From an uncultured Ruminiclostridium sp. (GTDB lineage Bacteria; Bacillota; Clostridia; DSM-8532): DNA of 29,935 nt. This document shows, in pieces, positions 11,408-26,297 of this stretch (positions are counted from its first letter, which is position 1; each line of letters opens with the position of its first letter). The position numbers were made by a program, and so were the translations under genes. The notes beneath the pieces were generated by a model. That model was not told the origin of the DNA and searched no databases. It worked only from the letters and a program-made list of their open reading frames with translations. Where the stretch lies: positions 702-30,636 of the forward strand of contig CAYUZC010000001.1 in assembly GCA_964449525.1 (NCBI GenBank). The letters are read 5' to 3'.

Positions 11408-11452
11408 ACATATGCGGAGGAATAGCAAGGAAGAATAAGAAGGAGATTCAAA

Positions 11453-13063
11453 ATGCCAGAGGGAATGATGCAAAAAGATAAAGGCTTTAATCTGACGTTT
11501 GAAAATGATGGTGTTTATCTCACCGTCTATAAACCCTTGGACTTTTTCAATAGAGTAAATGAAACTGATATTCTCAATATCATTCGTAAGAAAAAAATAC
11601 AAAACTATAATGCAAATATAATCGCCGATGCAGTTAGTAAAAGTACAGGGGAACCTGTTAAAATTGCAGAAGCTCAGGAAGAACAGAGCGTTAATTCTAC
11701 AGTTGAGGCAATTGTATCTCAAGATAAAATGTCAGCGTTTATTATTCTGTCGCCTCCGGAAGCCAATGGAATACCGCCTTCACTTGAGGCGATTGTTCAG
11801 GCATTGTATTCTAAGGGTGTAGTTTGGGGAATGAATGAAAGCAAAATACGTGAGTTAGTTGCAAACCCTGTTTATAATATACAAATTCAAGTTGCAGAAG
11901 GTGTCCCTGCTATAAACGGGAAAAACGGTGAAGTTAAATATATATTTGATATAAAAAAGGACAGAACCCCGACTATATTGGAGGACGGGACAGTTAATTA
12001 TAAAGAAATGAACCTTGTAGAAAGTGTAACAAAGGGGCAGAAGCTGGCAGAACTAATTCCTCCTATAGCAGGAAGACCCGGTAAGAATCTTGTAGGGGCT
12101 GAATTAAAGGCCATTGATGGCAAAAATGCACGTATACCAAGAGGACGAAATGTAGTATTAAGTGACGACGGGTGTGAATTATATTCTACTATTGATGGAC
12201 AATTAATGTATGTTGATGGTAAAATAAATGTTTTCCCAACATATGAGGTTATGGCAAATGTAGATAACTCTACCGGTAATATTAAGTTTATAGGAAATGT
12301 TGTGATCAGAGGGAATGTTCTATCAGGTTTTGAAATCGAAGCCGGAGGCAATATAGAAGTAAACGGTGTCGCAGAGGCTGCGATTCTGAAAGCCGGAGGA
12401 GATATTATACTTAAAAGAGGTATGCACGGCAACGGAAAAGGTATTTTGGTTGCAGGTAACGATATTGTATCAAAGTATATTGAAAGTGCAAATGTCGAAG
12501 CTCGCAATGATATTAAATGCGAGGCTATCATGCACTGCGATATTAAATGCGGAAACAAACTGGAACTGGGCGGTAAAAAAGGTCTTTTGGTTGGAGGAAC
12601 GGTTAGAGTAGGGAAATTGGTTGAACTAAAATACCTTGGCAGCCAAATGTCTACGGCAACAGTTCTTGAAGTAGGAATAGACCCCAACTTGCGTGAACGC
12701 CTTAAGTTTCTTAAAGTAGAAATTCCTGTTATTGAGGAAAGTCTTTTTAAAGCCAACCAAGCAATAACATTGTTGAACAAATTGAAGCAAACCGGGGAAC
12801 TTTCAATGGAAAAGCGTGAGATTCTTGCAAAGAGTACTCGTACCAGATTTGTTTACGAGAGTAAACTGCAGGAATATAAGAAGGAAATCGTGCAAATTGA
12901 AGAAATGTTGCAACAAGGCGCAAACGGACGAATCAGGGTGACGGGAAGCGTTTTCCCGGGTGTAAGGGTTGCTATTGGAAAGAGTATGATGTATATTAAA
13001 CAAGAGGCTCAGTATTGTACTTTATACAGTGATGGGGCCGATATTCGTTTTGGCCCATTGTAG
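11453..13063 (+). CDS. FapA / DUF342-family flagellar assembly protein
   Basis: Two N-terminal DUF342-type repeats, VAEGVPAINGKNG, VDNSTGNIKFIGNVVIRGNV beta-helix repeats and a C-terminal coiled coil. Follows sigD. Confidence 0.85.
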   Translation: MPEGMMQKDKGFNLTFENDGVYLTVYKPLDFFNRVNETDILNIIRKKKIQNYNANIIADAVSKSTGEPVKIAEAQEEQSVNSTVEAIVSQDKMSAFIILSPPEANGIPPSLEAIVQALYSKGVVWGMNESKIRELVANPVYNIQIQVAEGVPAINGKNGEVKYIFDIKKDRTPTILEDGTVNYKEMNLVESVTKGQKLAELIPPIAGRPGKNLVGAELKAIDGKNARIPRGRNVVLSDDGCELYSTIDGQLMYVDGKINVFPTYEVMANVDNSTGNIKFIGNVVIRGNVLSGFEIEAGGNIEVNGVAEAAILKAGGDIILKRGMHGNGKGILVAGNDIVSKYIESANVEARNDIKCEAIMHCDIKCGNKLELGGKKGLLVGGTVRVGKLVELKYLGSQMSTATVLEVGIDPNLRERLKFLKVEIPVIEESLFKANQAITLLNKLKQTGELSMEKREILAKSTRTRFVYESKLQEYKKEIVQIEEMLQQGANGRIRVTGSVFPGVRVAIGKSMMYIKQEAQYCTLYSDGADIRFGPL

Positions 13064-13080
13064 AGGGAGGGAGCATCCGG

Positions 13081-13398
13081 ATGTCAATTGGACCGGTGGA
13101 CTACCAAATTCTTGTGCCAAAGGTAAATGAGACGGGAAAAATACAGAGCGAAGCACAACAAAAGATGGTAAGTCAGGCTCAACAGCAGGCTGATAGTTCA
13201 GTCAAGCAATCTGAGCATGATACCAGAAGTGTGCATACGCAAAGTGAAGCCCAAAAGACTGCAATTACTGAGGATCAAAGGCGAAGGAACAACAATAAGG
13301 GGCAAAACGACAAGAGCGGTGATGACGAAAATAATGATAATAAAGAAGAGGAAAAATTATTACCACAGGAAAGACATACAATAGATATTCGCATATAG
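13081..13398 (+). CDS. Hypothetical protein (Q-rich, ends HTIDIRI)
   Basis: GGGAGG RBS, co-oriented ORF of 105 aa, no hydrophobic segment. Confidence 0.75.
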   Translation: MSIGPVDYQILVPKVNETGKIQSEAQQKMVSQAQQQADSSVKQSEHDTRSVHTQSEAQKTAITEDQRRRNNNKGQNDKSGDDENNDNKEEEKLLPQERHTIDIRI

Positions 13399-13458
13399 AT
13401 TTTTTACGAAGATTAATTTATTAAATTACTTAAGATAAAAGTTTTGAGGTGTAAAAAG

Positions 13459-14007
13459 ATGGCTGTGTTTTTTACCTGCATTATTCTAGTAGGTTCATGT
13501 CTAACGATATTTGCTTTTATTCTGATGCTGTATGAGAAGAAGCGGCTCCATGATTACAGGGGCGATCTTAAAGAAAAAAAAGAAGAGCTTATCAAAGTAA
13601 TTGAGGATGCGGAAGAGCTTATATCCGAAATGAATCGCTTCTCTGATTATACTGTAACCCAAATTGAAGAAAAGAATAGTGTATTACTGGACGCTATTGC
13701 AGAGGCCGATATGAAACTTCTACAACTGGATTCGAAGGTTATAGAAGAAGTTTCTATAGATGAGCCTGCATCAACTTACTCACCTGAATATAATGAAGCC
13801 TCTATTTCTAGAATTCTTGAAGAAGACAAGCCTCATGATAATGAAAAAAAATCATTATATGTTGGTAAAGGTAAGGTATTGACCTTTGATATTAAACGCC
13901 GGGAAATTGTCAAGCTTGCAAAAGCCGGTATGGAAAGTACTGAAATAGCTCGTATCCTGAATTGCGGAAAAGGAGAAATAGAGCTCATTTCCAGAATGAG
14001 AAGGTAA
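13459..14007 (+). CDS. SwrB-like (DUF6115/DUF2802-type) membrane-anchored protein
   Basis: N-terminal TM, coiled coil, and C-terminal HTH-like EIVKLAKAGMESTEIARILNCGKGEIELI resembling the B. subtilis SwrB C-terminus as I recall it. Same position (after sigD). GAGGTG RBS favours ATG 13459. Confidence 0.75.
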   Translation: MAVFFTCIILVGSCLTIFAFILMLYEKKRLHDYRGDLKEKKEELIKVIEDAEELISEMNRFSDYTVTQIEEKNSVLLDAIAEADMKLLQLDSKVIEEVSIDEPASTYSPEYNEASISRILEEDKPHDNEKKSLYVGKGKVLTFDIKRREIVKLAKAGMESTEIARILNCGKGEIELISRMRR

Positions 14008-14010
14008 AAA

Positions 14011-14406
14011 GTGAGGTTATTAGACAGTAAAAGTATTATTTTAGGTTTAGGTATTGGGATAATTATCACTTCACTGTTGGGCGTTATATTTTTTGCTGGA
14101 TATGAGCCACAATTAAGCGATGCAGAAATAATTAGTCTCGCACGTGAGCGTGGAATGGTAGACCGTTACGAATCCAGTAATGACATAAAACGGAATCAAG
14201 ATGGTAGCTTACTTTTTATAATTCATGAGAATGAGAGTTCTACAGATGTATCAAAACGGCTTTATGACGCAGGTATAATAGAAAGCTCAATAGAATTTGA
14301 AATCATAATTAAGAAAGAAAAACTGGAAAATGCCATAAAACCCGGGGAATACACAATTAGCTATAGTGATGATACCAAATCAATTATTGAAAAGATCACT
14401 CCATAA
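14011..14406 (+). CDS. Small membrane protein with YceG/MltG N-terminal-like domain
   Basis: N-terminal TM, then VSKRLYDAGII...IKPGEYTI, typical of the YceG-like domain. No catalytic transglycosylase domain. Confidence 0.7.
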   Translation: MRLLDSKSIILGLGIGIIITSLLGVIFFAGYEPQLSDAEIISLARERGMVDRYESSNDIKRNQDGSLLFIIHENESSTDVSKRLYDAGIIESSIEFEIIIKKEKLENAIKPGEYTISYSDDTKSIIEKITP

Positions 14407-14429
14407 ACTAAATTTATGGAGTGTTTTTT
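14397..14429 (+). terminator. Intrinsic terminator ending the fla/che operon (possibly bidirectional)
   Basis: Perfect 11-bp stem CACTCCATAAA/TTTATGGAGTG, loop CTAAA, followed by T6. Sits between convergent genes. Confidence 0.85.
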
Positions 14430-15720
14430 ATTTAGAATATCTCATTCCAAGAAGCTTATATGCGCTAATTCTTTCGTAGAGATTGGGATAATCAGTTAAA
14501 GCTTTTGAAGCGAACATGCCTTGTGACATATCATCTGTTGAAGCTAATTCGTGCCCTATCATAGCCCAAGTGGAGTCCTTTAAATTATTGAATGAACCAT
14601 CCTTCATGGCTTCACAGACGAAGGATTGCCTTGGTGAATTGATATCCTCACCGCTTATTTCAAATAAATTGTGTTTTCTACATAGGCCTCTTAATCGTTC
14701 AAGCTGAATAGTGGTGTTTCTTGAGGGCATATAAGTTACTCCGTTAAAGCCTAAATTTACGATAGTATCGAAAACTAGTTCAAGATAATCATCTTCAAAT
14801 TTCTGTGGCTTTTTGTCCCCGGTAACCGAATCTGTAATATCCCCAAGATAAGCATAAGCAGAAATGCCACCGATTTCTCTTGAAAATGTAAGAAGGTCTT
14901 TAATCGACGGACATTCTTCTTTTGCCTCAATGTAGAAGGATTGCACTAAATCACTTTTTAAAATACCCAAAAGGTCGTAATCATAATAAGGATTGTACGG
15001 GTCTGCCAGCAAGGTGTGCAATTTCTGGGAGACGTCTATTGATAAATGATTTTTTAGTGCATTAATAAGAGCTTCACCCTTGCCGTATTTATCAATAAGA
15101 TTAAGGGATAACCCATAAAGAAGATGTCTTTCGGTAATACTTCCGCCTTCTGCGGCTTTAGACAGCGGGATGATACCATCTTCAAAGTCAAGTTGTACAC
15201 GGGATTTATGAACCAAATCATTGATTTTTTCAACCATTTTCATATTGCGTTCATTCCGCCGTTGACGGTAAACAGTAAAGAATTTATCAACCTTTGAAAT
15301 CTGTGTATGAGGTATGCCGTGAATGGCAACATAAGCTATAGAATTTTGGTCAGGATTATTTATTCTCTTACCATAAAGAGGAGTTGCTGAAAAGTCGGCT
15401 CTGCACTCTACTCCAATTGTAGTTGCAATACCCGCTATTTTCCCCGCTTCAATAAACTCCGTGGCACCGCTTATGGAATCATGATCCATGATGCCTGCAG
15501 TGGATAATCCAGAAGTAAATGCCATCCAAATTGCTTTTGAAGGTGAGTATGGTGAAAATGAATAATTTGTGTGTATATGATTATTTACATGTCCACTAAC
15601 AGGCGTGAAACCATATACTCCGGATTTCGCTGCTTTAATCATGCGAGAAAGACTGTGAAGTCTTTTAGTGGGATTATTATGGTTTAAATCATTAGTAAGT
15701 TCTTCAATATTTTTAATCAT
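14428..15720 (-). CDS. PHP-domain metallo-phosphoesterase-like protein, atypical ligand set
   Basis: NNHIHTNYS, MDHD, GVE, ITERHL and GEDIN at the positions of PHP motifs. AAGGAAG RBS. Confidence 0.8.
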   Translation of the reverse strand: MIKNIEELTNDLNHNNPTKRLHSLSRMIKAAKSGVYGFTPVSGHVNNHIHTNYSFSPYSPSKAIWMAFTSGLSTAGIMDHDSISGATEFIEAGKIAGIATTIGVECRADFSATPLYGKRINNPDQNSIAYVAIHGIPHTQISKVDKFFTVYRQRRNERNMKMVEKINDLVHKSRVQLDFEDGIIPLSKAAEGGSITERHLLYGLSLNLIDKYGKGEALINALKNHLSIDVSQKLHTLLADPYNPYYDYDLLGILKSDLVQSFYIEAKEECPSIKDLLTFSREIGGISAYAYLGDITDSVTGDKKPQKFEDDYLELVFDTIVNLGFNGVTYMPSRNTTIQLERLRGLCRKHNLFEISGEDINSPRQSFVCEAMKDGSFNNLKDSTWAMIGHELASTDDMSQGMFASKALTDYPNLYERISAYKLLGMRYSK

Positions 15721-15751
15721 AGCTACTTCCTTAACTTAATAATACAATACA

Positions 15752-15780
15752 AGTATATATAAAATGTTGTAATATGTCCA
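15752..15780 (-). promoter_or_regulatory. Putative sigma-A promoter of the PHP gene
   Basis: Minus strand TGGACA-N17-TATACT. Confidence 0.6.
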
Positions 15781-15808
15781 CATAATTTTGATAAATTTTG
15801 ATTTAATG

Positions 15809-15837
15809 TTGATTTTAATGTTGATTTGTAATAAGAT
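15809..15837 (+). promoter_or_regulatory. Putative sigma-A promoter of the dehydrogenase operon, overlapped by TTGAT direct repeats
   Basis: TTGATT-N17-TAAGAT. TTGAT occurs at 15788, 15798, 15809 and 15821. Confidence 0.55.
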
Positions 15838-15888
15838 AATAATATAAAACAAAACAAACAATCATTTAATTAGTGAGGAGGAGTTTTT

Positions 15889-17157
15889 TTGAGATCAAAA
15901 GCAGTCAGGTTATATGGCAAAAAAGATCTGAGACTTGAAGAGTTTGAACTTCTTGAAATTCGTGATGATGAAATACTTGCCCAAGTTATATCTGACAGTA
16001 TGTGTATGTCTTCTTATAAGGCGGCCATACAGGGAGCCGATCATAAACGAGTCCCCGCAGATATTTTCGAAAATCCGATAATTGTAGGACACGAGTTTTG
16101 CGGCAGAATAGTTGAAGTAGGAACAAAGTGGCAAGGAAAGTTTAAAAAAGGAGATAGGTTTTCAATCCAGCCGGCATTGAACCTTAAAGAAGACCCTTAT
16201 GCCGCCCCTGGATATTCGTTTAGACACATAGGGGGAAGCGCCACATATATTATTATTCCCAATGTGGTTATGGAATCTGGAAGTTTGCTCCCATATCAAG
16301 GTAAAGCGTATTTTTATGGTTCTCTTGCAGAACCTATGTCCTGTATTGTTGGAGCTTTTAATGCCAGCTATCACACTACCCAAGGAAGTTATATCCACAA
16401 GATGGGTATAGTTGAAGGCGGGAATTTGGCAATTCTTGCAGGAGCGGGGCCTATGGGTCTCGGAGCCATAGATTATGCAATCAATAATCCTCATAAAAGG
16501 CCGGGACTTATTGTTGTGACAGATATTGATGACAGCAGACTTAAAAGAGCACAAGAGGTTATTTCTGTTGAACAGGCTGAGAAAAAGGGAATTAAACTTA
16601 TATATATTAATACCTCAGAATTTACCGATCCGGTCGGGCCTTTGATGTCCATAACTAATGGAGAAGGATATAATGATGTATTTGTTTTCGCTCCGGTAAA
16701 GCCGGTTGTTGAGATGGGAGATAAATTACTTTCTCAGGACGGTTGCCTTAATTTCTTCGCCGGGCCCAGCAACACAAAGTTTACCGCTGAATTGAATTTT
16801 TATAATGTGCATTATAGCAGTACACATATTGTCGGAACAAGCGGTGGAAATACCGAGGACATGAAAGAATCATTGGACCTTATGGCTGATGGTACAATAA
16901 ATCCCGCAGCCATGATTACTCATATTGGGGGACTCAATAGTGTTGTCAACACTATATTGAATCTGCCTGAAATCCCGGGTGGGAAAAAACTTATTTATAC
17001 TAATATTAATTTAGAACTTACCGCATTAACGGATTTCGCGGCGAAAGGAAAAGATAACCCTATGTTTGCTCGTCTCGCCGATATTACGGAAAAGAACAAC
17101 GGACTATGGTCATATGAAGCCGAAAAGTTTCTTCTGGAGCAGGCTGAAACAATTTAA
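15889..17157 (+). CDS. Zn-binding MDR dehydrogenase, L-sorbose-1-phosphate reductase (SorE)-like
   Basis: SDSMCMSSYKAA, GHE, AEPMSC, Rossmann GAGPMG, DGCLNFFAGP and HIVGTSGG. No structural-Zn 4-Cys loop, consistent with the SorE subfamily. TTG start with AGGAGG RBS. Confidence 0.8.
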   Translation: MRSKAVRLYGKKDLRLEEFELLEIRDDEILAQVISDSMCMSSYKAAIQGADHKRVPADIFENPIIVGHEFCGRIVEVGTKWQGKFKKGDRFSIQPALNLKEDPYAAPGYSFRHIGGSATYIIIPNVVMESGSLLPYQGKAYFYGSLAEPMSCIVGAFNASYHTTQGSYIHKMGIVEGGNLAILAGAGPMGLGAIDYAINNPHKRPGLIVVTDIDDSRLKRAQEVISVEQAEKKGIKLIYINTSEFTDPVGPLMSITNGEGYNDVFVFAPVKPVVEMGDKLLSQDGCLNFFAGPSNTKFTAELNFYNVHYSSTHIVGTSGGNTEDMKESLDLMADGTINPAAMITHIGGLNSVVNTILNLPEIPGGKKLIYTNINLELTALTDFAAKGKDNPMFARLADITEKNNGLWSYEAEKFLLEQAETI

Positions 17158-17188
17158 GTTTTGATTGTATAAAAAAGGAGTGAAGAAT

Positions 17189-18490
17189 ATGCCAACACCT
17201 GTTATACTTCCCCGTCAAGGGCAATCTGTGGAGAGCTGCATAATTGGAAAGTGGAATAAGAAGCCAGGCGATATTGTAAAAATCGGTGATATTTTATTCA
17301 GCTACGAAACAGACAAAGCCACCTTTGAAGAAGAGGCAAAAGTAGCCGGGACTCTTTTGGCTACGTTTTTTGATGAAGGGGACGATGTACCTGTTCTTAC
17401 TAATGTTGCAGTTATTGGAGAGCCGGGAGAAAACTTTTCAGAGTTTGTACCCGCTAACAATGAGGAATCAGATTCAGAATTGTCGGAATCTAAAAATAGT
17501 GAAAAGTCTAACGAAGAGATTGTCCCTTCTGTTACTCTTTCCTTAGACCAATCCAATATTAGTTCAGAGGCAAGGGGAATATCCCCCCGTGCGAAATCAG
17601 CCGCACAACGGTTGAGAGTTGATCCATCACTCGCAATGGCTACCGGCCCAAAAGACCGGATAATTGAAAGAGATATTTTCAAATTGAAGAAGGAAATGGG
17701 CATTGGGGCAGGAATAATAGATCAACAGCAAAGCTTTGACGAAAATACTTCGGCAGCCCAAATGGTCAATGCAGTTTCGAATAATATAGAGACTGAGTTT
17801 GTTGATGAATCACTTACGAATATTCGCAAGGTTATAGCTAATACTATGCATCAAAGCCTATCTTCCATGGCACAGCTCACTCATAATTCCTCCTTTGACG
17901 CAACATCAATTTTAGAATACAGGAAGCAACTTAAAGCCATATCGGAAAAAATGGATATCCCAAATATAACAATTAACGATATTATTATATTCGCTGTTTC
18001 TCGAATTTTAACAAAACACAAGTATCTAAACGCACATTTTCTTGAGAATAAAATACGTTGTTATAGTCATGTACACATGGGAATTGCGGTTGACACACCG
18101 AGGGGGCTTATTGTACCCACTCTGTTTAATGCAGATACTAAGAGTCTTAAACAGATTGCAATTGAATCAAAAATTCTGACAAAGTCTGCCCAAGAGGGAA
18201 ATATTAATCCGGATCTGCTGGCAGGAGGCACTTTTACCGTATCAAATCTGGGTGTACTGGGAATTGAAAGCTTTACTCCGGTTATTAATCCGCCTCAGAC
18301 AGGTATCTTGGGGGTTAACTGTATAGTGGAACGAGTTCGGTCACAGAATGGTCAGATAACAGTATATCCTTCAATGAGTCTTTCTCTTACTTATGATCAC
18401 CGAGCTCTTGACGGTGCTCCGGCATCACGTTTTCTTATGGATCTTAAAAATGCTCTGGAAAATTTCCCTGTTCTATTGGCGGGTAATTAA
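17189..18490 (+). CDS. Dihydrolipoamide acyltransferase (E2), single lipoyl domain
   Basis: Lipoyl motif ETDKA (Lys at 17315-17317), E1/E3-binding domain ISPRAK...ATGPKDRIIERDI, catalytic DHRALDG. AAGGAG RBS favours ATG 17189. Confidence 0.95.
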   Translation: MPTPVILPRQGQSVESCIIGKWNKKPGDIVKIGDILFSYETDKATFEEEAKVAGTLLATFFDEGDDVPVLTNVAVIGEPGENFSEFVPANNEESDSELSESKNSEKSNEEIVPSVTLSLDQSNISSEARGISPRAKSAAQRLRVDPSLAMATGPKDRIIERDIFKLKKEMGIGAGIIDQQQSFDENTSAAQMVNAVSNNIETEFVDESLTNIRKVIANTMHQSLSSMAQLTHNSSFDATSILEYRKQLKAISEKMDIPNITINDIIIFAVSRILTKHKYLNAHFLENKIRCYSHVHMGIAVDTPRGLIVPTLFNADTKSLKQIAIESKILTKSAQEGNINPDLLAGGTFTVSNLGVLGIESFTPVINPPQTGILGVNCIVERVRSQNGQITVYPSMSLSLTYDHRALDGAPASRFLMDLKNALENFPVLLAGN

Positions 18491-18503
18491 GGAGGACTAA
18501 TAT

Positions 18504-19868
18504 ATGAACTATGATCTTATTGTAATCGGCGGAGGGCCTGCGGGGTATTTAGCTGCTGAACGTGCTGGACAAGCAGGACTCAATGTTATTTGTTTTGAAA
18601 AAAATAGTGTAGGCGGTGTCTGTCTAAATGAAGGCTGTATACCGACCAAAACTATGCTCTACAGCGCAAAACTGTTTGATGGGGTGGTGAACGGAGAAAA
18701 ATACGGCATCACATCTACAGGCCTTGCTATAGATCACAGCAAAGTTATCGGAAGGAAAAATAAGGTTGTAAAGACACTTGTCAGCGGTGTGAAAGCTACC
18801 CTAAAATCCAATAATGTCACCATTGTAGAGTCTGAAGCGGTAATAACCGAAAAAACCGGCCAAGGTTATACAGTTTCTGCAAACGGTTCAGTCTATACCG
18901 GAAAGAGGATTCTTATTGCAACCGGCTCCTCACCTGCCGTGCCACCGATTCCCGGGCTAATGGAAGGAATCGAGTCAGGCTTTGTAATGACTAATAGAGA
19001 AGCACTTAGTATAGTAGAACCTCCGGAGAAACTGGTCGTAATCGGTGGCGGAGTAATTGGTCTTGAGATGGCATCCTATTATAACAGCATAGGTACTGAT
19101 GTTACCGTAGTTGAAATGCTTGACCATATTGGTGGCGAAAATGATATTGATCTTATAAAGATTTTACAAAAAAATTATGAGAAAAAAGGCATAAAGTTTT
19201 ATCTAAGCGCTAGAGTTACAGAGATTGGTAAGAATGAAGTTATTTTTGAAAAAGATGGTCAAATTCAAAAAGCTTTGGCAGATAAGGTTTTATTGTCCAT
19301 TGGTCGCAGACCTAATATATCGGGAATTGGCCTGGAAAATATCAATATTTTCACCGAACGGGGAGCCATAGTAACCGACGAAAAGATGAAAACAAACCAG
19401 CCTGAAGTATATGCAGCAGGAGATGTAAACGGAAAGTCCATGCTTGCACATACTGCATACAGGGAAGCTGAAGTAGCGGTTAATAATATTCTGGGTAAAA
19501 GGGATATTATGCGATACAGTGCAATTCCTTCGATTATATACACTAACCCGGAGCTGGCGTCAGCCGGTGAGACCGAAGCTACAGCAAAGGCGAAGGGGAT
19601 GGATGTCGATGCCATAAAGCTTTCAATGCGTTTCTCCGGCAGATATCTGGCAGAAAATGAAGGTGGAGACGGTATAGTAAAGCTTGTAGTTGAGAAAAAG
19701 AATAAAACTATTGTAGGAGTACAAGCTCTGGCAAATTACTCATCGGAGTTCATAGTGGCATGCAGTTCCTTTATTGAATTGGGACTTACCATTGATGAAA
19801 TAAAGAAAATTGTATTTCCGCATCCTACCGTGAGCGAGATTATCAGAGAAGCTGTTTTTCAATATTGA
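18504..19868 (+). CDS. lpdA: Dihydrolipoyl dehydrogenase (E3)
   Basis: FAD motif GGGPAG, redox disulfide GGVCLNEGCIP, NAD motif GGGVIG and C-terminal HPTVSE. Confidence 0.96.
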   Translation: MNYDLIVIGGGPAGYLAAERAGQAGLNVICFEKNSVGGVCLNEGCIPTKTMLYSAKLFDGVVNGEKYGITSTGLAIDHSKVIGRKNKVVKTLVSGVKATLKSNNVTIVESEAVITEKTGQGYTVSANGSVYTGKRILIATGSSPAVPPIPGLMEGIESGFVMTNREALSIVEPPEKLVVIGGGVIGLEMASYYNSIGTDVTVVEMLDHIGGENDIDLIKILQKNYEKKGIKFYLSARVTEIGKNEVIFEKDGQIQKALADKVLLSIGRRPNISGIGLENINIFTERGAIVTDEKMKTNQPEVYAAGDVNGKSMLAHTAYREAEVAVNNILGKRDIMRYSAIPSIIYTNPELASAGETEATAKAKGMDVDAIKLSMRFSGRYLAENEGGDGIVKLVVEKKNKTIVGVQALANYSSEFIVACSSFIELGLTIDEIKKIVFPHPTVSEIIREAVFQY

Positions 19869-19892
19869 ATTAATATAGGAGTGTGATATTAA

Positions 19893-22358
19893 ATGTCAAA
19901 ACAATTACCCATAATACCTGAGGAAATGCGTAAGCCCGGGAACTTGGCGTTCCAAGATATCCCTGTTAACAGTTATCAGAAGTCTGTAAAAGATGAGCTA
20001 GGTAGTTTTACAACTGAAGAATTCATGAATATATATCGGGATATGCTGTATATCCGTGAATTTGAGACAATGCTCAATCTAATAAAGACGACAAGTGAGT
20101 ACGAAGGAATTTCCTATAATCATCCCGGTCCGGCTCACCTTGGAATTGGCCAGGAGGCAGCTTATGTGGGTGAGGCCTTCCACCTTACTATTGATGATTA
20201 TATTTTCGGTTCACACCGAAGCCATGGCGAGATATTGGCAAAAGGATTAAGAGCTATTGAAATATTAGATGAAGAAAAGCTTACAGAAATAATGGAAAGT
20301 TTCTTCGAAGGTAAGATTTTAAAAATAGTTAAAGAATCCGGTAAAACCATGAAGGAAATTGGCCGGGACTTTTTGCTTTACGGTACCATGTGTGAGATCT
20401 TTGCCCGTGAAAATGGCTTTAATAAAGGAATGGGCGGTTCAATGCACGCGTTTTTCACTCCTTTCGGTATTTATCCCAACAATGCTATCGTTGGCGGGAG
20501 CGGAGATATATCGGTTGGTGCCGCTATGTACAAGCTTATAAATAAAAAGCCCGGTGTTGTAGTGTGTAATATAGGGGATGGATCATTAGGCTGCGGACCT
20601 GTATGGGAAGGGCTGATGATGGCGGTCATGGATCAGTGTAAGACACTTTGGGGTGAAGATGGCGGTGGCATGCCGATTATATTTAACATCAACAACAATT
20701 TCTACGGAATGGGTGGCCAAACCTTCGGTGAAACCATGGGTTACGGAATGCCTGCACGAATTGCAGCAGGAATATCTCCGACCCAGCTTCATGCTGAGCG
20801 TATTGACGGATTTAACCCTCTTGCAGTAATTGACGCCTACAAACGCAAGCTTCCTGTTGCCAAGGAGGAGGGACCTGTTCTTTTAGATGTTGTTACATAC
20901 AGATATTCCGGACATTCTCCTTCCGATTCATCGAGCTATAGATCCAAGGAAGAAATTGAATCATGGGAAAAGGTTGATTCAATCGTCGCTTTTAAAAGCC
21001 AGCTTATTGAGGCCGGTGTATGCACTGAAAAAGATTTAGAAACAGTATCATCACAGGTCAAAGCCGATATTTTGCGAAACTTCAAATTATCAATTGATGA
21101 AAAGATATCGCCACGCACAGACATATTCGGAACACAATCCAATTTTATTAGTGACCTTATGTTTTCAAATCAAGAAGTCCGATCCTTAGATGGTTCGAGA
21201 AAGCCAGATGTGCTTTTGCCTAAGAATGAATGTCCAAGAGTAAAACAGCTTATGTCAAAGGAGCGCTTTGGCTTTGATAAAAACGGAAAACCTGTCTCCA
21301 AAAACAGAGTTTATCAGCTCCGAGACGGAATAGCAGAACCTATAATAAACAAATTCTATGAGGACCCTACCCTTGTTACCTATGGTGAGGATGTCCGCGA
21401 TTGGGGAGGCGCTTTTGCAGTTTATCGTGGAATGACAGAAGCTATTCCTTATCACAGATTGTTCAACACTCCCATAAGCGAAGCAGCTATTGTCGGCTCA
21501 GCCGTCGGTTATGCTATGTGTGGGGGTCGTGTAATAGCAGAACTAATGTACACAGACTTTTTAGGACGTGCAGGAGATGAAGTATTTAACCAGCTGAGTA
21601 AATGGCAGGCCATGAGTGCAGGGATTTTAAAAATGCCTGTGGTATTGCGTATGAGCGTTGGGAGCAAGTATGGCGCACAGCATTCCCAAGACTGGTCAGC
21701 TCTATGTACCCATATTCCGGGGTTAAAGGTGGTATTCCCTGCAACTCCATATGATGCTAAAGGCTTGATGCAAGCAGCATTGAATGGTACAGATCCGGTG
21801 ATTTTCCTTGAAAGTCAACGAATATATGATGTCGGTGAACAATTCCATGAGGGAGGGGTCCCTCAGGAAGAATATGAGATTAAAATTGGTGACCCGGATA
21901 TAAAACGGGTGGGTTCCGATGTTACTATCCTGTCTATAGGTGCTACCCTTTACAGGGCAATTAAGGCTGCAGATATTCTAGCTGAAAAATATGCTGTCAG
22001 CGCGGAAGTGATTGATGCCAGAAGCCTTGTACCATTTAATTATAGTAAGGTTATTGAAAGTATTAAAAAGACAGGGCGTATTATAATAACAGGCGATGCT
22101 TGTGAACGCACATCGTTTATGAGAAATATGGCCTCACACATTACAGAACTTGCTTTCGATTATATGGATGCACCGCCTGTAGTAGTGGGAGCTAAAAATT
22201 GGATTACTCCTGCCCATGAATTAGAGGATGCTTTCTTCCCGCAACCTGAATGGCTTATAGACGCTATCCATGAGCGGATTCTTCCAATACCGGGACATAT
22301 ATGTACTCATAACTTCACAGAGCTTGAGCAGCTTCGTGAGAACCAGATGGGAGTATAA
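19893..22358 (+). CDS. Fused ThDP-dependent dehydrogenase E1 alpha/beta, substrate unknown
   Basis: Alpha half: HLGIGQEA, SHRSHG, GMGGSMH, GDG...NNN, YRYSGHSPSD. Beta half: GEDV, TPISEAAIVG, GAQHSQ, EVIDARSLVP. One 821-aa ORF. Confidence 0.93.
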   Translation: MSKQLPIIPEEMRKPGNLAFQDIPVNSYQKSVKDELGSFTTEEFMNIYRDMLYIREFETMLNLIKTTSEYEGISYNHPGPAHLGIGQEAAYVGEAFHLTIDDYIFGSHRSHGEILAKGLRAIEILDEEKLTEIMESFFEGKILKIVKESGKTMKEIGRDFLLYGTMCEIFARENGFNKGMGGSMHAFFTPFGIYPNNAIVGGSGDISVGAAMYKLINKKPGVVVCNIGDGSLGCGPVWEGLMMAVMDQCKTLWGEDGGGMPIIFNINNNFYGMGGQTFGETMGYGMPARIAAGISPTQLHAERIDGFNPLAVIDAYKRKLPVAKEEGPVLLDVVTYRYSGHSPSDSSSYRSKEEIESWEKVDSIVAFKSQLIEAGVCTEKDLETVSSQVKADILRNFKLSIDEKISPRTDIFGTQSNFISDLMFSNQEVRSLDGSRKPDVLLPKNECPRVKQLMSKERFGFDKNGKPVSKNRVYQLRDGIAEPIINKFYEDPTLVTYGEDVRDWGGAFAVYRGMTEAIPYHRLFNTPISEAAIVGSAVGYAMCGGRVIAELMYTDFLGRAGDEVFNQLSKWQAMSAGILKMPVVLRMSVGSKYGAQHSQDWSALCTHIPGLKVVFPATPYDAKGLMQAALNGTDPVIFLESQRIYDVGEQFHEGGVPQEEYEIKIGDPDIKRVGSDVTILSIGATLYRAIKAADILAEKYAVSAEVIDARSLVPFNYSKVIESIKKTGRIIITGDACERTSFMRNMASHITELAFDYMDAPPVVVGAKNWITPAHELEDAFFPQPEWLIDAIHERILPIPGHICTHNFTELEQLRENQMGV

Positions 22359-22433
22359 AAGTTTAGTGGCTGTAGACTGAAGAACACTCAACAGATACAA
22401 TTCGGTTCGTGAAACCTACAGTCGCGAAGCTTT
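22358..22433 (+). other. Intergenic RNA stem-loop enclosing CUGAAGA...GUGAAAC
   Basis: Arms 22358-22375 and 22416-22433 give 14 Watson-Crick pairs, 3 G-U pairs and 1 mismatch. Confidence 0.6.
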
Positions 22434-22466
22434 CATAAATTTAATAAGCATATGGAGAGGATTTTT

Positions 22467-23252
22467 ATGATACAAAACCTTGAAGGACAAGTTGCCATAG
22501 TAACAGGTGGAGCACAGGGCTTAGGAGAAGCTCTGTGTCGCAGATTGGATGAGGAAGGATTAAAGGTTGTTGTGGCCGATATCAATCTTGAGCAGGCTCA
22601 AAAGGTGGCCGAAACACTTAAAGATGCCATAGCTATAGGCGTAAATGTTTGTGATGAGGCCCAGGTTGATGATATGGTAAACATGACTATTGAACGTTTT
22701 GGCAAGCTTGATTTATTGGTCTCAAATGCCGCCATACTCATTGCAAAACCTGTGGTAGAATTCTCATATAAAGAATGGGAAAGAATGATTGACGTCAATT
22801 TGAACGGATATTTTCTATGTGCCAGGGCCACTGCACGTGTTATGATTCCAAACGGAAAGGGAAACATTGTTCAGATTAATAGCAAGTCGGGGAAAAAGGG
22901 CTCTTATAAGAATTCGGCATATGCTACAGCCAAGTTTGCTGGAGTCGGGTTCACCCAGAGCTTGGCGCTTGAGCTTGCTGAACACGGAATAAGAGTTAAT
23001 GCTATCTGCCCGGGAAACTTACTCAACTCACCTTTATGGAACGATGGCCCAAATGCTCTGTTCAAGCAGTATGCAAGAAATCAGGGAATCACTGAGGCAC
23101 AGGTTAAACAGAAATATTTAGATCAGGTCCCCTTGAGAAGAAGCTGTGAATATGAAGATATTGCTAATGCTCTTGTCTTCATTGCCTCGGATTCCGCCAG
23201 CTATATGACCGGACAGGCCATAAATGTGACAGGTGGCCAGGAAATGAGGTAG
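22467..23252 (+). CDS. srlD: Sorbitol(glucitol)-6-phosphate 2-dehydrogenase-like SDR
   Basis: TGGAQGLG, QINSKSGKKG, YxxxK (YATAK), GNLLNSP, VPLRRSCEY and TGQAINVTGGQ closely parallel SrlD/SorD. GGAGAGG RBS favours ATG 22467. Confidence 0.85.
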   Translation: MIQNLEGQVAIVTGGAQGLGEALCRRLDEEGLKVVVADINLEQAQKVAETLKDAIAIGVNVCDEAQVDDMVNMTIERFGKLDLLVSNAAILIAKPVVEFSYKEWERMIDVNLNGYFLCARATARVMIPNGKGNIVQINSKSGKKGSYKNSAYATAKFAGVGFTQSLALELAEHGIRVNAICPGNLLNSPLWNDGPNALFKQYARNQGITEAQVKQKYLDQVPLRRSCEYEDIANALVFIASDSASYMTGQAINVTGGQEMR

Positions 23253-23291
23253 TGGGCGAAGCCCTTATTGAATAATGTGGGAGGCGATAAT

Positions 23292-24080
23292 GTGCTCGGT
23301 GTAGAACGAAGAAATAAAATCTTGACAATGATCAATGAAAAAAAGAGTATCCCGGTTCAGGAAACAGCGGCACTCTTCAATGTTACTGAAGAAACAATAA
23401 GAAGAGATTTTAAGTATCTTGAGAAAAAGGGGTTGTTGGTTAGAATACACGGAGGAGCCGTTATATCCGATGAGTCAAAAACTGAACCATCCCTTGAAAT
23501 GAGAGAGGGTATCAATATACCCGGCAAGGATGCTATAGGCAAAAAAGCTGCTGAATTGATTGAGGATTACGATACCATTATATTGGATGCCAGCACCTCG
23601 GCACTATATGTTGCTAAAAATATAAAAGATAAAAAAGGTCTCACTGTAATAACCAATGCAGAAAGAATTATTTTTGAGCTTTCTTCCTGTGATGATATAA
23701 AACTTATATCATCCGGAGGGGTCTTAAGAAATAAAAGTTTGTCCTATGTTGGAAAAATGGCTGAAACTGTGATTAAAAACTATTACGCCAATAAATTGTT
23801 TTTCTCTTGTAGGGGATTTATACCTAAAATAGGACTAACGGATTCCAGTGAACAAGAGTCAGAAATTCGCAGAACTATGATGGAATGCTCGGATAAGGTT
23901 ATTTTTCTGTGTGACCATACCAAGTTTAACAGGGTTGGTTATGTAAACACCGCAAAGCTGGATGAATTAGACTATATAATAACCGATAAACCCTTTCCTT
24001 CCGAATGGGATGAATATTTTGAAGGCGAGTCACCGGTTATAATTGGTTCCGATACACCAAACAATATAGGAGAGATCTGA
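23292..24080 (+). CDS. DeoR/GlpR-family transcriptional regulator
   Basis: HTH FNVTEETIRRD, RIHGGA and sugar-binding domain IILDASTS...TVITN. GGAGG RBS favours GTG 23292. Confidence 0.95.
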   Translation: MLGVERRNKILTMINEKKSIPVQETAALFNVTEETIRRDFKYLEKKGLLVRIHGGAVISDESKTEPSLEMREGINIPGKDAIGKKAAELIEDYDTIILDASTSALYVAKNIKDKKGLTVITNAERIIFELSSCDDIKLISSGGVLRNKSLSYVGKMAETVIKNYYANKLFFSCRGFIPKIGLTDSSEQESEIRRTMMECSDKVIFLCDHTKFNRVGYVNTAKLDELDYIITDKPFPSEWDEYFEGESPVIIGSDTPNNIGEI

Positions 24081-24164: not shown

Positions 24165-25154
24165 ATGATGAATTACAGAACTCTTGGGAAAACAGGATTT
24201 AAAGTATCGGAGGTGTCTTTAGGTACATGGCAGTTGGGAGGCAAGTGGGGCGGAAAATTTGATGAGCGTAGTGCGGAAGAAACCTTAAAAAAGGCAGTCG
24301 AATTAGGTGTTAATTTTTTTGACACTGCTGATGGATATGTCGATGGTCTGAGCGAAAAATCGATAGGAAAGTTTGTTAAGACGATAAGCGATAGAATTTA
24401 TGTGGCCACAAAATGTGGACGGAAGCTTAACCCACACAATGCCGACGGATACAATCGACAGAATATAAGAGAATTTGTACATGATAGCTTAAAAAATATG
24501 GGACTAGAGGTTTTGGACCTCATTCAACTACATTGCCCTCCTACAGAGGTTTATAGCAAACAAGAGGTATATGATACTCTGGATGAGTTAAAAAAGGAAG
24601 GTAAGATTCTAAATTACGGTGTCAGTGTAGAAAAAGTACAAGAAGCATTGATAGCAATGGAACATGAGGGAATTGCAACCATACAGTTGATATTTAATAT
24701 GTTTAGACAAAAGCCGATAGAAGAAGTATTTGAAGTTGCAAAAAATAAAAATGTCGGAATTATTGCAAGGGTCCCTCTAGCTAGCGGTATGCTATCAGGA
24801 AAGATAAACAAGAACAGTACCTTTGAAAAGAACGATCACAGATTATTTAACAGAAACGGTGAATTCTTTGACAAAGGTGAAACTTTTTCGGGAGTAGATT
24901 TTGAAGTCGGGATTCAAGCTGTGACAGAGCTTAAACAAATATTTGGGGAAGATAAAAAATTAGCACAGTATGCATTACGATGGATATTGATGTTCGATTC
25001 AATAAGCTGTGTAATACCCGGGGCAAGCAATCAACTGCAAGCAGAAGGTAATGCTTTAGCATCATCACTCCCACCTTTTACTAATGAGCAAATGGAGAAA
25101 GTAAAGGAAGTATATAATAAATATATCAAAAAAGATGTTCATAATTTATGGTAA
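24165..25154 (+). CDS. Aldo/keto reductase
   Basis: YRTLGKTG..VSEVSLGTW, FFDTADGY, ATK, LIQLH, GIIARVPLASG and VIPGAS motifs. Confidence 0.93.
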   Translation: MMNYRTLGKTGFKVSEVSLGTWQLGGKWGGKFDERSAEETLKKAVELGVNFFDTADGYVDGLSEKSIGKFVKTISDRIYVATKCGRKLNPHNADGYNRQNIREFVHDSLKNMGLEVLDLIQLHCPPTEVYSKQEVYDTLDELKKEGKILNYGVSVEKVQEALIAMEHEGIATIQLIFNMFRQKPIEEVFEVAKNKNVGIIARVPLASGMLSGKINKNSTFEKNDHRLFNRNGEFFDKGETFSGVDFEVGIQAVTELKQIFGEDKKLAQYALRWILMFDSISCVIPGASNQLQAEGNALASSLPPFTNEQMEKVKEVYNKYIKKDVHNLW

Positions 25155-25294: not shown

Positions 25295-26125
25295 TTGAAA
25301 AGATATTTCGAAGGGTGGTATTTTAAACACCAAAAAGAACAGGAAACATTATCAATAATTATGGGTCGCGCGGATGATGGGGCCTTTATACAGGTTATTA
25401 CCCAAGAAGATTCTTACCGTGTACGATATCCGCTTTCAACATATCATAAAGAACAGACCCTTCGGCTGGCCGATAGCTGGTTTGAGCAAAATCATATTCA
25501 CCTTTCCATTCATCATAAAGAGTTGGAGCTCTTCGGTGATTTGTATTACGATAATCTTACTCCCATATGCGGAAATATTATGGGACCTTTTCGATTCATA
25601 CCAATGCAGTGTAGGCATGAGGTAGTCAGTATGAACCACACACTGAAGGGAAGTATTACTCTTAATGGAAAAGAGATTGATTTTACAGGAGGTAAAGGCT
25701 ATATCGAAGGGGATGCCGGATGCTCTTTTCCCAAGAGCTATACCTGGGTTCAATGCAATAGCTTTACCGAAAATTGTTCTATTATGGCGGCTGTGGCACA
25801 TATCCCATTTATGTTTGCTTGGTTTTGGGGCTGCATCTGCGTGATATGGTTAAATGGAGTGGAATATAGGCTAGCGACATACCGAGGAGTAAAGATCAAA
25901 TATAGGGATGAGCGACAATTGGTATTGGTTCAGAAAGATTTAACCTTACAAATTCAATTTCTGCAGCAACATGCTGGAAATATCTTAGATGCCCCTAGCA
26001 AAGGAAAGATGGAGCGAAATGTATGGGAGGTTCCTTGTGCTCCGGCTTATTTCGAGTTTCGGAAGGGAAATGTAATCCTTTTTAAAGGAGAGAGCCGCTT
26101 TGCCAGTTATGAACACATCGTTTGA
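25295..26125 (+). CDS. Tocopherol cyclase-family protein
   Basis: N-terminal YFEGWYFK and GKGYIEGDAGCSFPKSYTWVQCN motifs. TTG start with GAGGGG RBS. Confidence 0.75.
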   Translation: MKRYFEGWYFKHQKEQETLSIIMGRADDGAFIQVITQEDSYRVRYPLSTYHKEQTLRLADSWFEQNHIHLSIHHKELELFGDLYYDNLTPICGNIMGPFRFIPMQCRHEVVSMNHTLKGSITLNGKEIDFTGGKGYIEGDAGCSFPKSYTWVQCNSFTENCSIMAAVAHIPFMFAWFWGCICVIWLNGVEYRLATYRGVKIKYRDERQLVLVQKDLTLQIQFLQQHAGNILDAPSKGKMERNVWEVPCAPAYFEFRKGNVILFKGESRFASYEHIV

Positions 26126-26210: not shown

Positions 26211-26297
26211 GCCGATGTGATGGAATTGGCAGACGTAGTGGACTCAAAATCCACCGGTGGCAACACCGTGCCGGTTCGAGTCCGGCCATCGGCACCA
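26211..26297 (+). tRNA. tRNA-Leu(CAA)
   Basis: Acceptor stem GCCGATG/CATCGGC, anticodon arm GTGGA-CTCAAAA-TCCAC, long variable arm, GGTTCGAGTCC T-arm, discriminator A and encoded CCA. 87 nt. Confidence 0.97.

Follow-up and report, generated by a model that had tools for sequence, protein, structure and literature searches.

A gene module joining an acetoin/pyruvate-dehydrogenase-like complex to two sorbose-pathway-type sugar-phosphate dehydrogenases, with a probable role in L-fucose and L-rhamnose breakdown

Several described systems are close to the locus analyzed here. The acetoin dehydrogenase enzyme system (AcoA/AcoB/AcoC/AcoL) uses a ThDP E1, a lipoyl E2 and an E3 to cleave a methyl alpha-ketol to acetyl-CoA and an aldehyde, and the pyruvate dehydrogenase complex of Firmicutes (PdhABCD) has the three corresponding catalytic components. 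In the L-sorbose pathway, SorE (L-sorbose-1-P reductase) and SorD/SrlD (glucitol-6-P 2-dehydrogenase) relay a carbonyl from C2 to C5 of a ketohexose-1-P. [quoted passage not shown] The nearest described locus is the rhamnose-associated cluster of Caldicellulosiruptor (C. bescii Athe_0695-0706; C. saccharolyticus Csac_0865-0876), which is reported as highly upregulated on rhamnose (PMC4187192) and whose complex is listed as a 'predicted dehydrogenase in rhamnose utilization' (PMC8579813). The gene set is not unknown to the literature, although its function is unassigned there too and we found no biochemical work on it.

The locus lies in a 29,935-nucleotide stretch of DNA from an uncultured Ruminiclostridium sp. 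(contig CAYUZC010000001.1), hereafter the window, and all the genes listed in the earlier note were confirmed. A flagellar/chemotaxis operon lies upstream, and its tail gene is separated from the 3' end of the PHP gene by a bidirectional terminator-like hairpin at 14397-14423 (a stem of 11-12 pairs followed by T-runs on both strands) that marks the left border of the module. The gaps within the plus-strand unit are 7, 13, 24, 93 and 15 nt, slightly different from the 13-108 nt of the earlier note. No AcoR, AcoX, LipA, PTS, isomerase, kinase or transporter was found in the window.

The PHP gene (14428-15720, minus strand) encodes an atypical PHP-fold protein of 430 aa (Pfam PHP, 30.7 bits) and is the most specific marker of the module. 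The nearest folds to its AlphaFold model (pLDDT 92) are the phosphoesterases 3e0f, 2yb1 and RNase AM, with TM 0.70-0.73 by target and 14-18% identity. The HxH, DHD, E and H positions are invariant, whereas DxN replaces DxH and AYAY replaces AHP in all 19 homologues. Its role is unknown, the candidates being a sugar-phosphate phosphatase or a metal-dependent epimerase/isomerase. The 168-nt divergent promoter region (15721-15888) holds the tandem direct repeat TTTAATGTTGAT x2 at 15802-15825, preceded by TTTTGAT words. This is the only tandem copy of the word in the 2.36-Mb genome and is inferred to be a candidate DeoR operator.

The first gene of the plus-strand unit (15889-17157) encodes an MDR Zn-dehydrogenase of 422 aa with ADH_N and ADH_zinc_N domains, which is 50.6% identical to annotated SorE and 55% identical to E. 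coli YggP. Orthologues of 55-72% identity sit in fuc/rha operons. The SDR (22452-23252, plus strand, 266 aa) scores 368.7 bits with the NF009050 sorbitol-6-P dehydrogenase model, above the 307 cut-off, and is 49% identical to E. coli SrlD, with the S6P dehydrogenase 5o3z as its best PDB match. The labels 'SorE-like' and 'SrlD-like' given in the earlier note therefore hold, and the two proteins are close relatives of the only characterised pair that moves a carbonyl along a ketose-1-P.

The complex is encoded between these two dehydrogenases. The E2 dihydrolipoyl acyltransferase (17165-18490, plus strand, 441 aa) has a 2-oxoacid_dh domain (238 bits), a lipoyl domain with the ETDKA motif, a weak E3-binding domain and the catalytic DHRALDG motif, but it scores below all NCBIfam equivalog cut-offs. 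The E3 dihydrolipoyl dehydrogenase (18504-19868, plus strand, 454 aa) scores 470.9 bits with TIGR01350, above the 408.8 cut-off, and contains CLNEGC and HPTVSE. The E1 (19893-22358, plus strand) is a single fused alpha-beta ThDP enzyme of 821 aa carrying E1_dh, Transket_pyr and Transketolase_C, in which GDGS-x38-NNN (an insertion of about 10 aa) and YRYSGHSPSD were found. It falls below the PDH cut-offs (TIGR03182, 186.7 against 393.9; NF006667, 240 against 321), and its alpha half is highly divergent, scoring 84 bits or less against any solved E1 alpha. A total of 8000 or more homologues were found, with the top 120 at 73-100% identity. The E1 belongs to a distinct fused family, being 50% identical over its full length to a Rhizobium plasmid E1, against 39% or less for two-subunit E1 beta proteins. 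The Rhizobium and Agrobacterium plasmid genes sit beside kinase, mutarotase, sugar ABC and SorC/RpiR genes without any aldolase.

The SDR gene is followed by that of a DeoR-family repressor (23268-24080, plus strand; HTH_DeoR and DeoRC) with a sugar-phosphate sensor domain, which is the likely local regulator and the counterpart of RhaR2 in C. bescii (PMC8579813). A DeoR gene also flanks the module in six related loci. An aldo-keto reductase (AKR) of 329 aa follows 84 nt downstream (24165-25154, plus strand; Aldo_ket_red, 221 bits) and shows weak similarity to the YdjG methylglyoxal reductase (110 bits against a 550 cut-off). It may reduce an aldehyde or ketol side product such as acetol, lactaldehyde or methylglyoxal, but its membership is uncertain. 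No match was found in any related locus compared, and one locus, whose contig ends at DeoR, could not be assessed.

The association of these genes is far beyond chance, as shown by both conserved synteny and phyletic co-occurrence. Out of 301 sampled Clostridia genomes, 62 carry this E1 and 55 carry this PHP, with both present in 52, the E1 only in 10 and the PHP only in 3. Fifty-two of the 62 E1-positive genomes have L-fucose isomerase (FucI) and/or L-rhamnose isomerase (RhaA), whereas among 238 E1-negative genomes, 77 have FucI and 82 have RhaA. The order FucI-FucU-FGGY-SDR-PHP-MDR-E2-E3-E1-DeoR occurs in the related loci L004/L088 with no aldolase in the operon, RhaA-AldII-(FGGY)-SDR-PHP-MDR-E2-E3-E1 occurs in four loci, and MDR-E2-E3-E1-SDR-PHP-FGGY forms one operon in a complete genome of the window's own family. 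Where E2-E3-E1 stands apart, the SDR/PHP/MDR trio still sits in fuc and rha operons elsewhere in the genome, as observed in one genome. In 29 Christensenellaceae-type loci the operon is DUF89 phosphatase-E2-E3-E1-transketolase-LplA, which places a consumer of tetrose-4-P inside the operon, although this transketolase is the only full-length one in those genomes and its position may be incidental.

These observations partly support the interpretation in the earlier note. The complex is tied to sugar metabolism and not to general pyruvate oxidation. The host has two PFORs, so it does not need a PDH. The SorE/SrlD/PHP linkage is conserved across many genera, and the E1 is not an ordinary PDH, BCKDH or AoDH by curated models. 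However, the regulon is not the generic ketose/polyol one that was suggested but a 6-deoxyhexose (L-fucose/L-rhamnose) module, seen in relatives with FucI, RhaA, FucU and rhamnulokinase-type kinases. Of the two activities put forward in the note, the decarboxylation of 2-keto sugar acids has no support, whereas the oxidative cleavage of a ketose phosphate (1-deoxy-ketose phosphates were also named) to acetyl-CoA and an aldose phosphate is also our preferred reading.

In this reading, to which we assign a probability of about 0.45, the cluster is the core of an alternative catabolic branch for L-fucose and L-rhamnose, with every chemical step being inferred. An isomerase and a rhamnulokinase-type FGGY kinase, encoded elsewhere in this genome (FucI and the kinase lie on another contig), would make L-fuculose-1-P or L-rhamnulose-1-P. 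The MDR is proposed to reduce the C2 carbonyl of this compound (or an epimer) to give a 6-deoxyhexitol-1-P, as SorE does with L-sorbose-1-P, and the SDR to oxidise C5, as SrlD oxidises the hydroxyl next to the far end of glucitol-6-P. Because that end is a methyl group, the product would be a 1-deoxy-ketohexose-6-phosphate (CH3-CO-CHOH-R), a substituted acetoin and a homologue of DXP. The fused E1 would then add ThDP to the ketone and break the C2-C3 bond, releasing a tetrose-4-phosphate and leaving hydroxyethyl-ThDP, which is oxidised onto the lipoyl arm of E2 and passed to CoA as acetyl-CoA while E3 regenerates the lipoamide with NAD+. The PHP protein probably adjusts stereochemistry so that D-erythrose-4-P results, or removes phosphorylated by-products, and in relatives a RhaE-like class II aldolase/epimerase may share this role. 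DeoR would repress the unit until a sugar phosphate accumulates. The absence of a PF00596 aldolase hit in one genome carrying a fucose-type cluster also favours this reading.

Some observations do not fit easily, and no biochemical data exist. C. saccharolyticus ferments rhamnose to 1,2-propanediol, acetate, H2 and CO2 at 1:1:1:1 (PMC4187192), which accounts for all the carbon through the classical aldolase route under those conditions. With SorE-type stereochemistry and no epimerisation, the predicted product is D-threose-4-P and not E4P, so that extra, unproven steps are needed. In addition, the SDR/PHP/MDR copies in the fucose and rhamnose operons of one genome are nearly identical and must either accept both C4 epimers or act on a common fragment formed after aldolase cleavage. 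A RhaE-like class II aldolase is also a frequent member of the module, and the host genome has a canonical class II aldolase.

The strongest alternative, although unlikely on present evidence, is that the module works after classical aldolase cleavage, where the complex with MDR, SDR and PHP disposes of the C3 fragment, either from L-lactaldehyde through lactate and pyruvate to acetyl-CoA or from lactaldehyde through methylglyoxal to acetyl-CoA and formate, with one of the dehydrogenases also serving as the missing lactaldehyde reductase that makes 1,2-propanediol. This is essentially the suggestion of Rodionov et al. for C. bescii, in which the complex performs the final lactaldehyde step because FucO and AldA are missing in Caldicellulosiruptor (PMC8579813). 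It is consistent with the propanediol yield, with the RhaE-like and host aldolases and with the near-identical trio copies, as expected if they act on a common intermediate. Moreover, the RhaW SDR domain of RhaEW is related to SrlD-type SDRs and was assayed as a lactaldehyde dehydrogenase (PMC3870299), the window SDR scoring 180 bits on TIGR02632. On the other hand, the roughly 50% identity of the MDR and SDR to enzymes acting on C6 sugar phosphates is hard to reconcile with an unphosphorylated C3 aldehyde as substrate, a phosphoesterase-fold protein has no role in C3 chemistry, no lactate dehydrogenase is in the module, and ThDP E1 enzymes are not known to take 2-hydroxyaldehydes. Fucose-type operons and the Rhizobium and Agrobacterium loci have no aldolase, and the host already has two PFORs for pyruvate.

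A more doubtful variant places a branch point at 1-deoxy-ketohexose-6-P, which the RhaE-like aldolase would split into hydroxyacetone and glyceraldehyde-3-P. The hydroxyacetone would be reduced to 1,2-propanediol, for example by the AKR that follows DeoR, and the lipoyl complex would be the oxidative alternative used only when reducing equivalents can be disposed of. This reconciles the 1:1 propanediol yield of Caldicellulosiruptor, which lacks FucO, with the SorE/SrlD homology. It is, however, entirely inferential. The AKR is not conserved in the relatives compared, an AldII-type aldolase was not found in the host genome, and class II FucA-family aldolases are known with ketose-1-P or ribulose-5-P substrates but not with 1-deoxy-ketose-6-P.

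It is improbable that the complex is an ordinary acetoin or pyruvate dehydrogenase, with the two dehydrogenases being butanediol/acetoin reductases or unrelated neighbours and the linkage to sugar genes having no functional meaning. The closest characterised proteins of the C. bescii orthologues are AcoC, AcoL and AcoB at 33-42% identity, the SDR also scores 206 bits on a meso-butanediol dehydrogenase model, and many Christensenellaceae loci show E2-E3-E1 without the trio adjacent. Nevertheless, the SDR passes the sorbitol-6-P dehydrogenase equivalog cut-off and not the butanediol one, the MDR is SorE/YggP-type, AcoR and AcoX are absent, the E1, E2 and AcoC model scores are all below their cut-offs, the host has two PFORs, the E1 co-occurs tightly with the PHP even when the two are unlinked, and the complex is embedded in kinase-containing operons. 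Least likely is a genuine L-sorbose/glucitol pathway (sorbose-1-P to glucitol-6-P to fructose-6-P) with the complex as a separate function, which matches the SorE and SrlD identities and the 'Sorbose?' label in the supplement of PMC8579813, but there is no sorbose PTS or transporter, the pair lies in FucI and RhaA operons between the deoxyketose kinase and E2, and in the window and in the complete genome of its own family the pair flanks the complex within one transcription unit.

Compared with the described systems, the Caldicellulosiruptor locus has, by the annotations of the two papers, the same gene set of SrlD-like, SorE-like, E2, E3, an acetoin-DH-like E1 and a DeoR regulator (RhaR2), next to RhaA and aldolases, but it also carries LipB/LipA, FucA, RhaD1 and RhaA, which the window lacks. 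RhaEW resembles the module in combining a RhaE-like class II aldolase with an SrlD-related SDR on rhamnulose-1-P, and relatives of the module carry a RhaE-like protein of about 350 aa beside the SDR, whereas no RhaE-like gene was found in the window's genome and RhaEW works without an MDR, a PHP or a lipoyl complex. The pyruvate dehydrogenase complex of Firmicutes shares the motifs and cofactors, but all PDH equivalog models score below their cut-offs, including TIGR01349 (258.5 against 445). The L-sorbose pair shares the logic of the carbonyl relay, but here the pair is embedded in fucose/rhamnose operons in relatives, and with a 6-deoxy substrate the product is a 1-deoxy-ketose phosphate, which cannot enter glycolysis as fructose-6-P does. 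Finally, the acetoin dehydrogenase system carries out the chemistry proposed here, but in the window the E1 is a single fusion with insertions, the gene order is E2-E3-E1, the NCBIfam AcoC model scores 57 bits against a 307 cut-off, the partners are sugar-phosphate enzymes and the presumed aldehyde product is a tetrose phosphate.

Open reading frame listing and profile searches confirmed the set of genes listed in the earlier note. A 430-aa PHP-domain protein is encoded on the minus strand at 14428-15720 and, divergently after a spacer of 168 nt, six genes follow on the plus strand, namely a 422-aa Zn-dependent MDR (15889-17157), E2 (17165-18490), E3 (18504-19868), an 821-aa fused E1 alpha-beta (19893-22358), a 266-aa SDR (22452-23252) and a DeoR regulator (23268-24080). 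The gaps within this plus-strand unit are 7, 13, 24, 93 and 15 nt, and an aldo-keto reductase follows after 84 nt (24165-25154). Upstream (1-14406) lies a flagellar/chemotaxis operon encoding FlhA, FlhF, a FlhG-like protein, a PilZ/YcgR protein, CheB, CheA, CheW, CheC, CheD, a sigma-28-type factor, FapA and DUF6115, which is unrelated to the module and is closed by a bidirectional terminator at 14397-14423. Downstream, an ORF of 276 aa (25295-26125) has a short match to the tocopherol cyclase family (PF14249, 44.6 bits) without any NCBIfam hit. No kinase, transporter, PTS, AcoR, AcoX or lipoate gene was found in the window. The module has a G+C content of 39-43% (16001-23000) against 35-38% in its flanks.

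We also searched the spacers for regulatory elements. Rfam detected only a tRNA downstream of the cluster at 26211-26294 (RF00005, 50.9 bits), with no riboswitch or other RNA, and no inverted repeats were found in the three spacers. However, the divergent PHP/MDR spacer carries a perfect tandem TTTAATGTTGAT repeat (x2, 15802-15825), the only tandem copy in the genome, which we infer to be a candidate DeoR operator, although the word was not found upstream of the fucI operon on contig C97 of the host genome. The DeoR protein itself contains both the HTH_DeoR and the DeoRC sensor domains (66.8 and 164.7 bits) but scores below every equivalog cut-off, for example 199.6 against 260 for AgaR.

The labels given to the two dehydrogenases in the earlier note, SorE-like and SrlD-like, were found to be right. 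The SDR is 49% identical to E. coli SrlD over 260 aa, with the shared motifs INSKSGK.GS and VPL[KR]R..VTGGQ, and its best solved relative is an S6P dehydrogenase, whereas a literature search for SrlD phosphate-binding residues gave nothing usable. The MDR is 50.5-50.7% identical to the annotated sorE (L-sorbose-1-phosphate reductase) of Serratia and Citrobacter and 55% identical to E. coli YggP, and its length of 422 aa agrees with the long MDR architecture of about 410-420 aa, although no SorE model was listed among the NCBIfam hits.

The PHP protein scores 30.7 bits on the Pfam PHP model, above the cut-off of 26.4, and was modelled by AlphaFold with high confidence (pLDDT 92). The model matches 3e0f, 2yb1 and 9etk in Foldseek (E 5e-12 to 2.5e-10, TM by target 0.69-0.73) and superposes on phosphoesterases of the TrpH/Cv1693 type (TM 0.70-0.73 by target, 14-18% identity). 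In an alignment of 19 homologues, HIH, DHD, E104 and H198 are invariant, whereas three of the canonical metal-ligand positions are replaced in all the sequences: the Asp after HxH is Ser/Phe (YSFSPYSP), AHP is AYAY, and DxH is D358-x-N360. The complete trinuclear metal-ligand set (HxH, D, H, E, H, H, DxH) is therefore not present, with the ligands being assigned by motif position and not by superposition, and the chemistry of this protein is open.

The E1 has thousands of close homologues. Eighty loci were fetched from species genomes and compared with the proteins of the window, and about twenty of them were found to carry SDR-PHP-MDR next to E2-E3-E1. Pfam annotation of their surroundings revealed two main arrangements. 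The first is FucI-FucU-FGGY kinase-SDR-PHP-MDR-E2-E3-E1-DeoR (loci L004/L088), an operon that has no aldolase. The second is RhaA, a class II aldolase-like protein (AldII; about 350 aa, RhaE-like) and (FGGY)-SDR-PHP-MDR-E2-E3-E1, followed by LplA or by a PfkB kinase, FucU and a ribose-type ABC transporter (loci L042/L086, L059, L034 and others). In a complete genome of the window's own family the operon is MDR-E2-E3-E1-SDR-PHP-FGGY kinase, with RhaA-AldII elsewhere. Where E2-E3-E1 seems to stand alone, the SDR, PHP and MDR trio is located elsewhere in the genome inside fuc and rha operons, as in the genome G003 (loci L092 and L093). AldII is not restricted to genomes with RhaA, as it follows E1 in one locus (L101) from a genome that tested negative for RhaA.

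Among 301 sampled genomes of the class, 62 have the E1 and 55 have the PHP; 52 have both, ten have only the E1 and three have only the PHP. FucI and/or RhaA were found in 52 of the 62 E1-positive genomes, whereas among 238 E1-negative genomes 77 have FucI and 82 have RhaA. These are descriptive counts, as related genomes are not independent, but they do span 36 to 42 genera. The linkage is thus conserved and points to 6-deoxyhexoses.

In the host genome, the fucose genes occur on a separate 7.3-kb contig (C97) that ends right after the kinase, and comprise a CUT2 ABC permease, a binding protein, LacI, FucI (1122 bits) and a rhamnulokinase-type FGGY kinase. One canonical class II aldolase sits alone on a 2-kb contig (C376), while no RhaE-like protein was detectable with our query. 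The host also has a lipoate-protein ligase, only this one E1 and two full-length PFORs, and a PDH would therefore be redundant. None of five other genomes of the same genus has the E1 or the PHP which, together with the slightly higher G+C content of the module, suggests acquisition by horizontal transfer.

Outside the Clostridia, a tblastn search of plasmids with the beta half found the same 821-aa fused E1 in Agrobacterium (pAt15955) and Rhizobium (Rhizobium binae p6), with an identity of 59% in the beta half and 50% over the full length, whereas all two-subunit E1 beta proteins are 39% identical or less. In these loci the E1 is followed by a separate 77-aa lipoyl protein and an alpha/beta-hydrolase in place of a normal E2, and it sits beside a PfkB or xylulokinase-type kinase, FucU, sugar ABC transporters, a sugar-phosphate isomerase/epimerase and SorC/RpiR regulators, with no aldolase. 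This favours a ketose phosphate over a C3 compound as the substrate class of the family. Another lipoyl complex in a sugar-phosphate setting was observed on plasmid p1 of a Shinella sp., where a two-subunit acetoin-DH-like complex has a transaldolase-family gene inserted between E1 beta and E2, flanked by a class II FBP aldolase, a HAD hydrolase, an RpiR regulator and a phosphoglycolate phosphatase.

The mechanism that we propose is inferred. SorE and SrlD together move a carbonyl, as L-sorbose-1-P is reduced at C2 to glucitol-6-P, which is then oxidised at the other end to fructose-6-P. L-fuculose and L-rhamnulose are 6-deoxy-L-ketohexoses that share the C5 configuration of L-sorbose, and the same relay applied to their 1-phosphates gives CH3-CO-CHOH-CHOH-CHOH-CH2OP. 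This 1-deoxy-ketohexose-6-phosphate cannot be isomerised to an aldose but is a substituted acetoin and a homologue of DXP. An acetoin-dehydrogenase-type E1 would cleave it between C2 and C3 into hydroxyethyl-ThDP and a tetrose-4-phosphate, and E2 and E3 would convert the former into acetyl-CoA and NADH. The only stereocentre that distinguishes fuculose from rhamnulose (C4) becomes the aldehyde carbon, which would explain why one complex and nearly identical copies of the trio serve both sugars. Sugar-specific paralogues of the trio would have argued for action on the intact C6 skeleton, but the tree showed that the fucose and rhamnose copies in one genome are nearly identical and hence this test did not discriminate.

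With SorE-type stereochemistry and no further step, our Fischer-projection analysis gives D-threose-4-P, whereas inversion at the original C3 would give D-erythrose-4-P. This inversion might occur either through a 3-epimerisation of the ketose-1-P to 6-deoxy-L-sorbose-1-P or through an AraD-like 4-epimerisation of the 1-deoxy-ketose-6-P. The PHP protein and the RhaE-like class II aldolase/epimerase-family protein are candidates for these steps, although nothing in our data shows it. A tetrose-phosphate product fits the arrangement seen in 29 of the fetched loci, largely MAGs labelled Christensenellaceae/Christensenella (for example L006, 6229-15527), where the operon is DUF89/ARMT1 'damage-control' phosphatase-E2-E3-E1-full-length transketolase-LplA. 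However, this transketolase is also the only full-length one in the three such genomes checked.

Taken in full, this reading makes the fused-E1 complex a lipoyl dehydrogenase whose substrate is a sugar phosphate, and it would give anaerobes an aldolase-independent route converting all six carbons of fucose and rhamnose into acetyl-CoA plus a tetrose-4-phosphate (E4P after epimerisation) instead of discarding half as 1,2-propanediol, with the atypical PHP protein acting as a non-hydrolytic epimerase/isomerase. The evidence does not exclude it, and we tentatively give it a probability of about 0.35. Fucose and rhamnose are major sugars of mucin, plant pectin and algal polysaccharides, and their anaerobic catabolism is thought to run through lactaldehyde to 1,2-propanediol and propionate. 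If true, this reading would add a sugar phosphate to the substrate range of the 2-oxoacid/acetoin dehydrogenase complexes, explain why strict anaerobes with PFOR keep a lipoyl complex, and assign functions to a PHP subfamily and a SorE/YggP subfamily that are currently unassigned. The system was found in about a fifth of the sampled Clostridia genomes, including Christensenellaceae, and is of high interest because it is widespread and directly testable.

The strongest alternative is that the module acts after aldolase cleavage, on lactaldehyde or its products. This is favoured by the propanediol stoichiometry in Caldicellulosiruptor, the frequent RhaE-like protein, the shared copies of the trio and the precedent of RhaEW (PMC3870299). 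In the RhaEW assays neither DHAP nor lactate formed without NAD+, which could mean that oxidation precedes C-C cleavage in that enzyme and bears on how RhaE-like and SrlD-like partners work in this module. On the other hand, the roughly 50% identity of the MDR and SDR to C6 sugar-phosphate enzymes, the partner with a predicted phosphoesterase fold, the aldolase-free fucose operons and the proteobacterial contexts all argue against action after aldolase cleavage. A branch-point variant, in which an aldol split of the 1-deoxy-ketose-6-P yields hydroxyacetone plus GAP with the complex as the oxidative alternative, would reconcile both sets of facts but is speculative. An ordinary PDH is unlikely given the curated cut-offs, the two PFORs and the co-occurrence of the E1 with the PHP, an ordinary acetoin/butanediol operon is unlikely given the identity of the SDR and MDR and the missing Aco neighbours, and a true sorbose pathway is likewise unlikely.

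The association of these genes is real, conserved and biologically meaningful, and the central inference of the earlier note, that a lipoyl/ThDP complex works on a sugar, is supported and sharpened here to fucose/rhamnose catabolism, with the chemistry being unproven. The module has already been noticed in Caldicellulosiruptor. Rodionov et al. 2021 (PMC8579813) list in C. bescii FucA, RhaD1, a hypothetical protein, SrlD (51% to E. coli SrlD), SorE (54% to a Klebsiella SorE), LipB, LipA, three 'predicted dehydrogenase in rhamnose utilization' genes homologous to AcoC, AcoL and AcoB, the DeoR regulator RhaR2 and RhaA; they suggest that the complex performs the last, lactaldehyde, step and leave it unassigned. 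Bielen et al. 2013 (PMC4187192) report that the orthologous Csac_0865-0876 cluster is highly induced on rhamnose, that the role of the non-canonical genes is unclear, and that rhamnose gives 1,2-propanediol, acetate, H2 and CO2 at 1:1:1:1. Other papers call the complex a putative PDH or keto-acid dehydrogenase without enzymatic evidence (PMC3561251), and no biochemical characterisation was found in our literature search, which was incomplete.

Compared with the 2-oxoacid/acetoin dehydrogenase multienzyme complexes, the catalytic signatures are intact. The E1 contains E1_dh, Transket_pyr and Transketolase_C, with GDGS-x38-NNN at 228-270, including an insertion of about 10 residues, and YRYSGHSPSD at 336. 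The E2 contains Biotin_lipoyl and 2-oxoacid_dh with the lipoyl ETDKA and the catalytic DHRALDG, and the E3 is a standard dihydrolipoyl dehydrogenase (TIGR01350 470.9, above 408.8) with CLNEGC and HPTVSE. On the basis of identity gaps and HMM cut-offs, however, the E1 is set apart, and both the E1 and E2 fall below every curated equivalog cut-off for PDH, OGDH and the AcoC-type E2. For pyruvate dehydrogenase the scores are 186.7 against 393.85 (TIGR03182), 116.9 against 411.35 (TIGR03181), 240 against 321 (NF006667) and 258.5 against 445 (TIGR01349), and the alpha half of E1 is only remotely like any solved E1 alpha, at 84 bits or less. For the acetoin dehydrogenase system, the AcoC-type E2 model NF011457 scores 57.1 against 307 and no sigma-54 activator or AcoX is present in the window, whereas the SDR scores 206 against 270 on BudC but 368.7 against 307 on the sorbitol-6-phosphate dehydrogenase equivalog NF009050.
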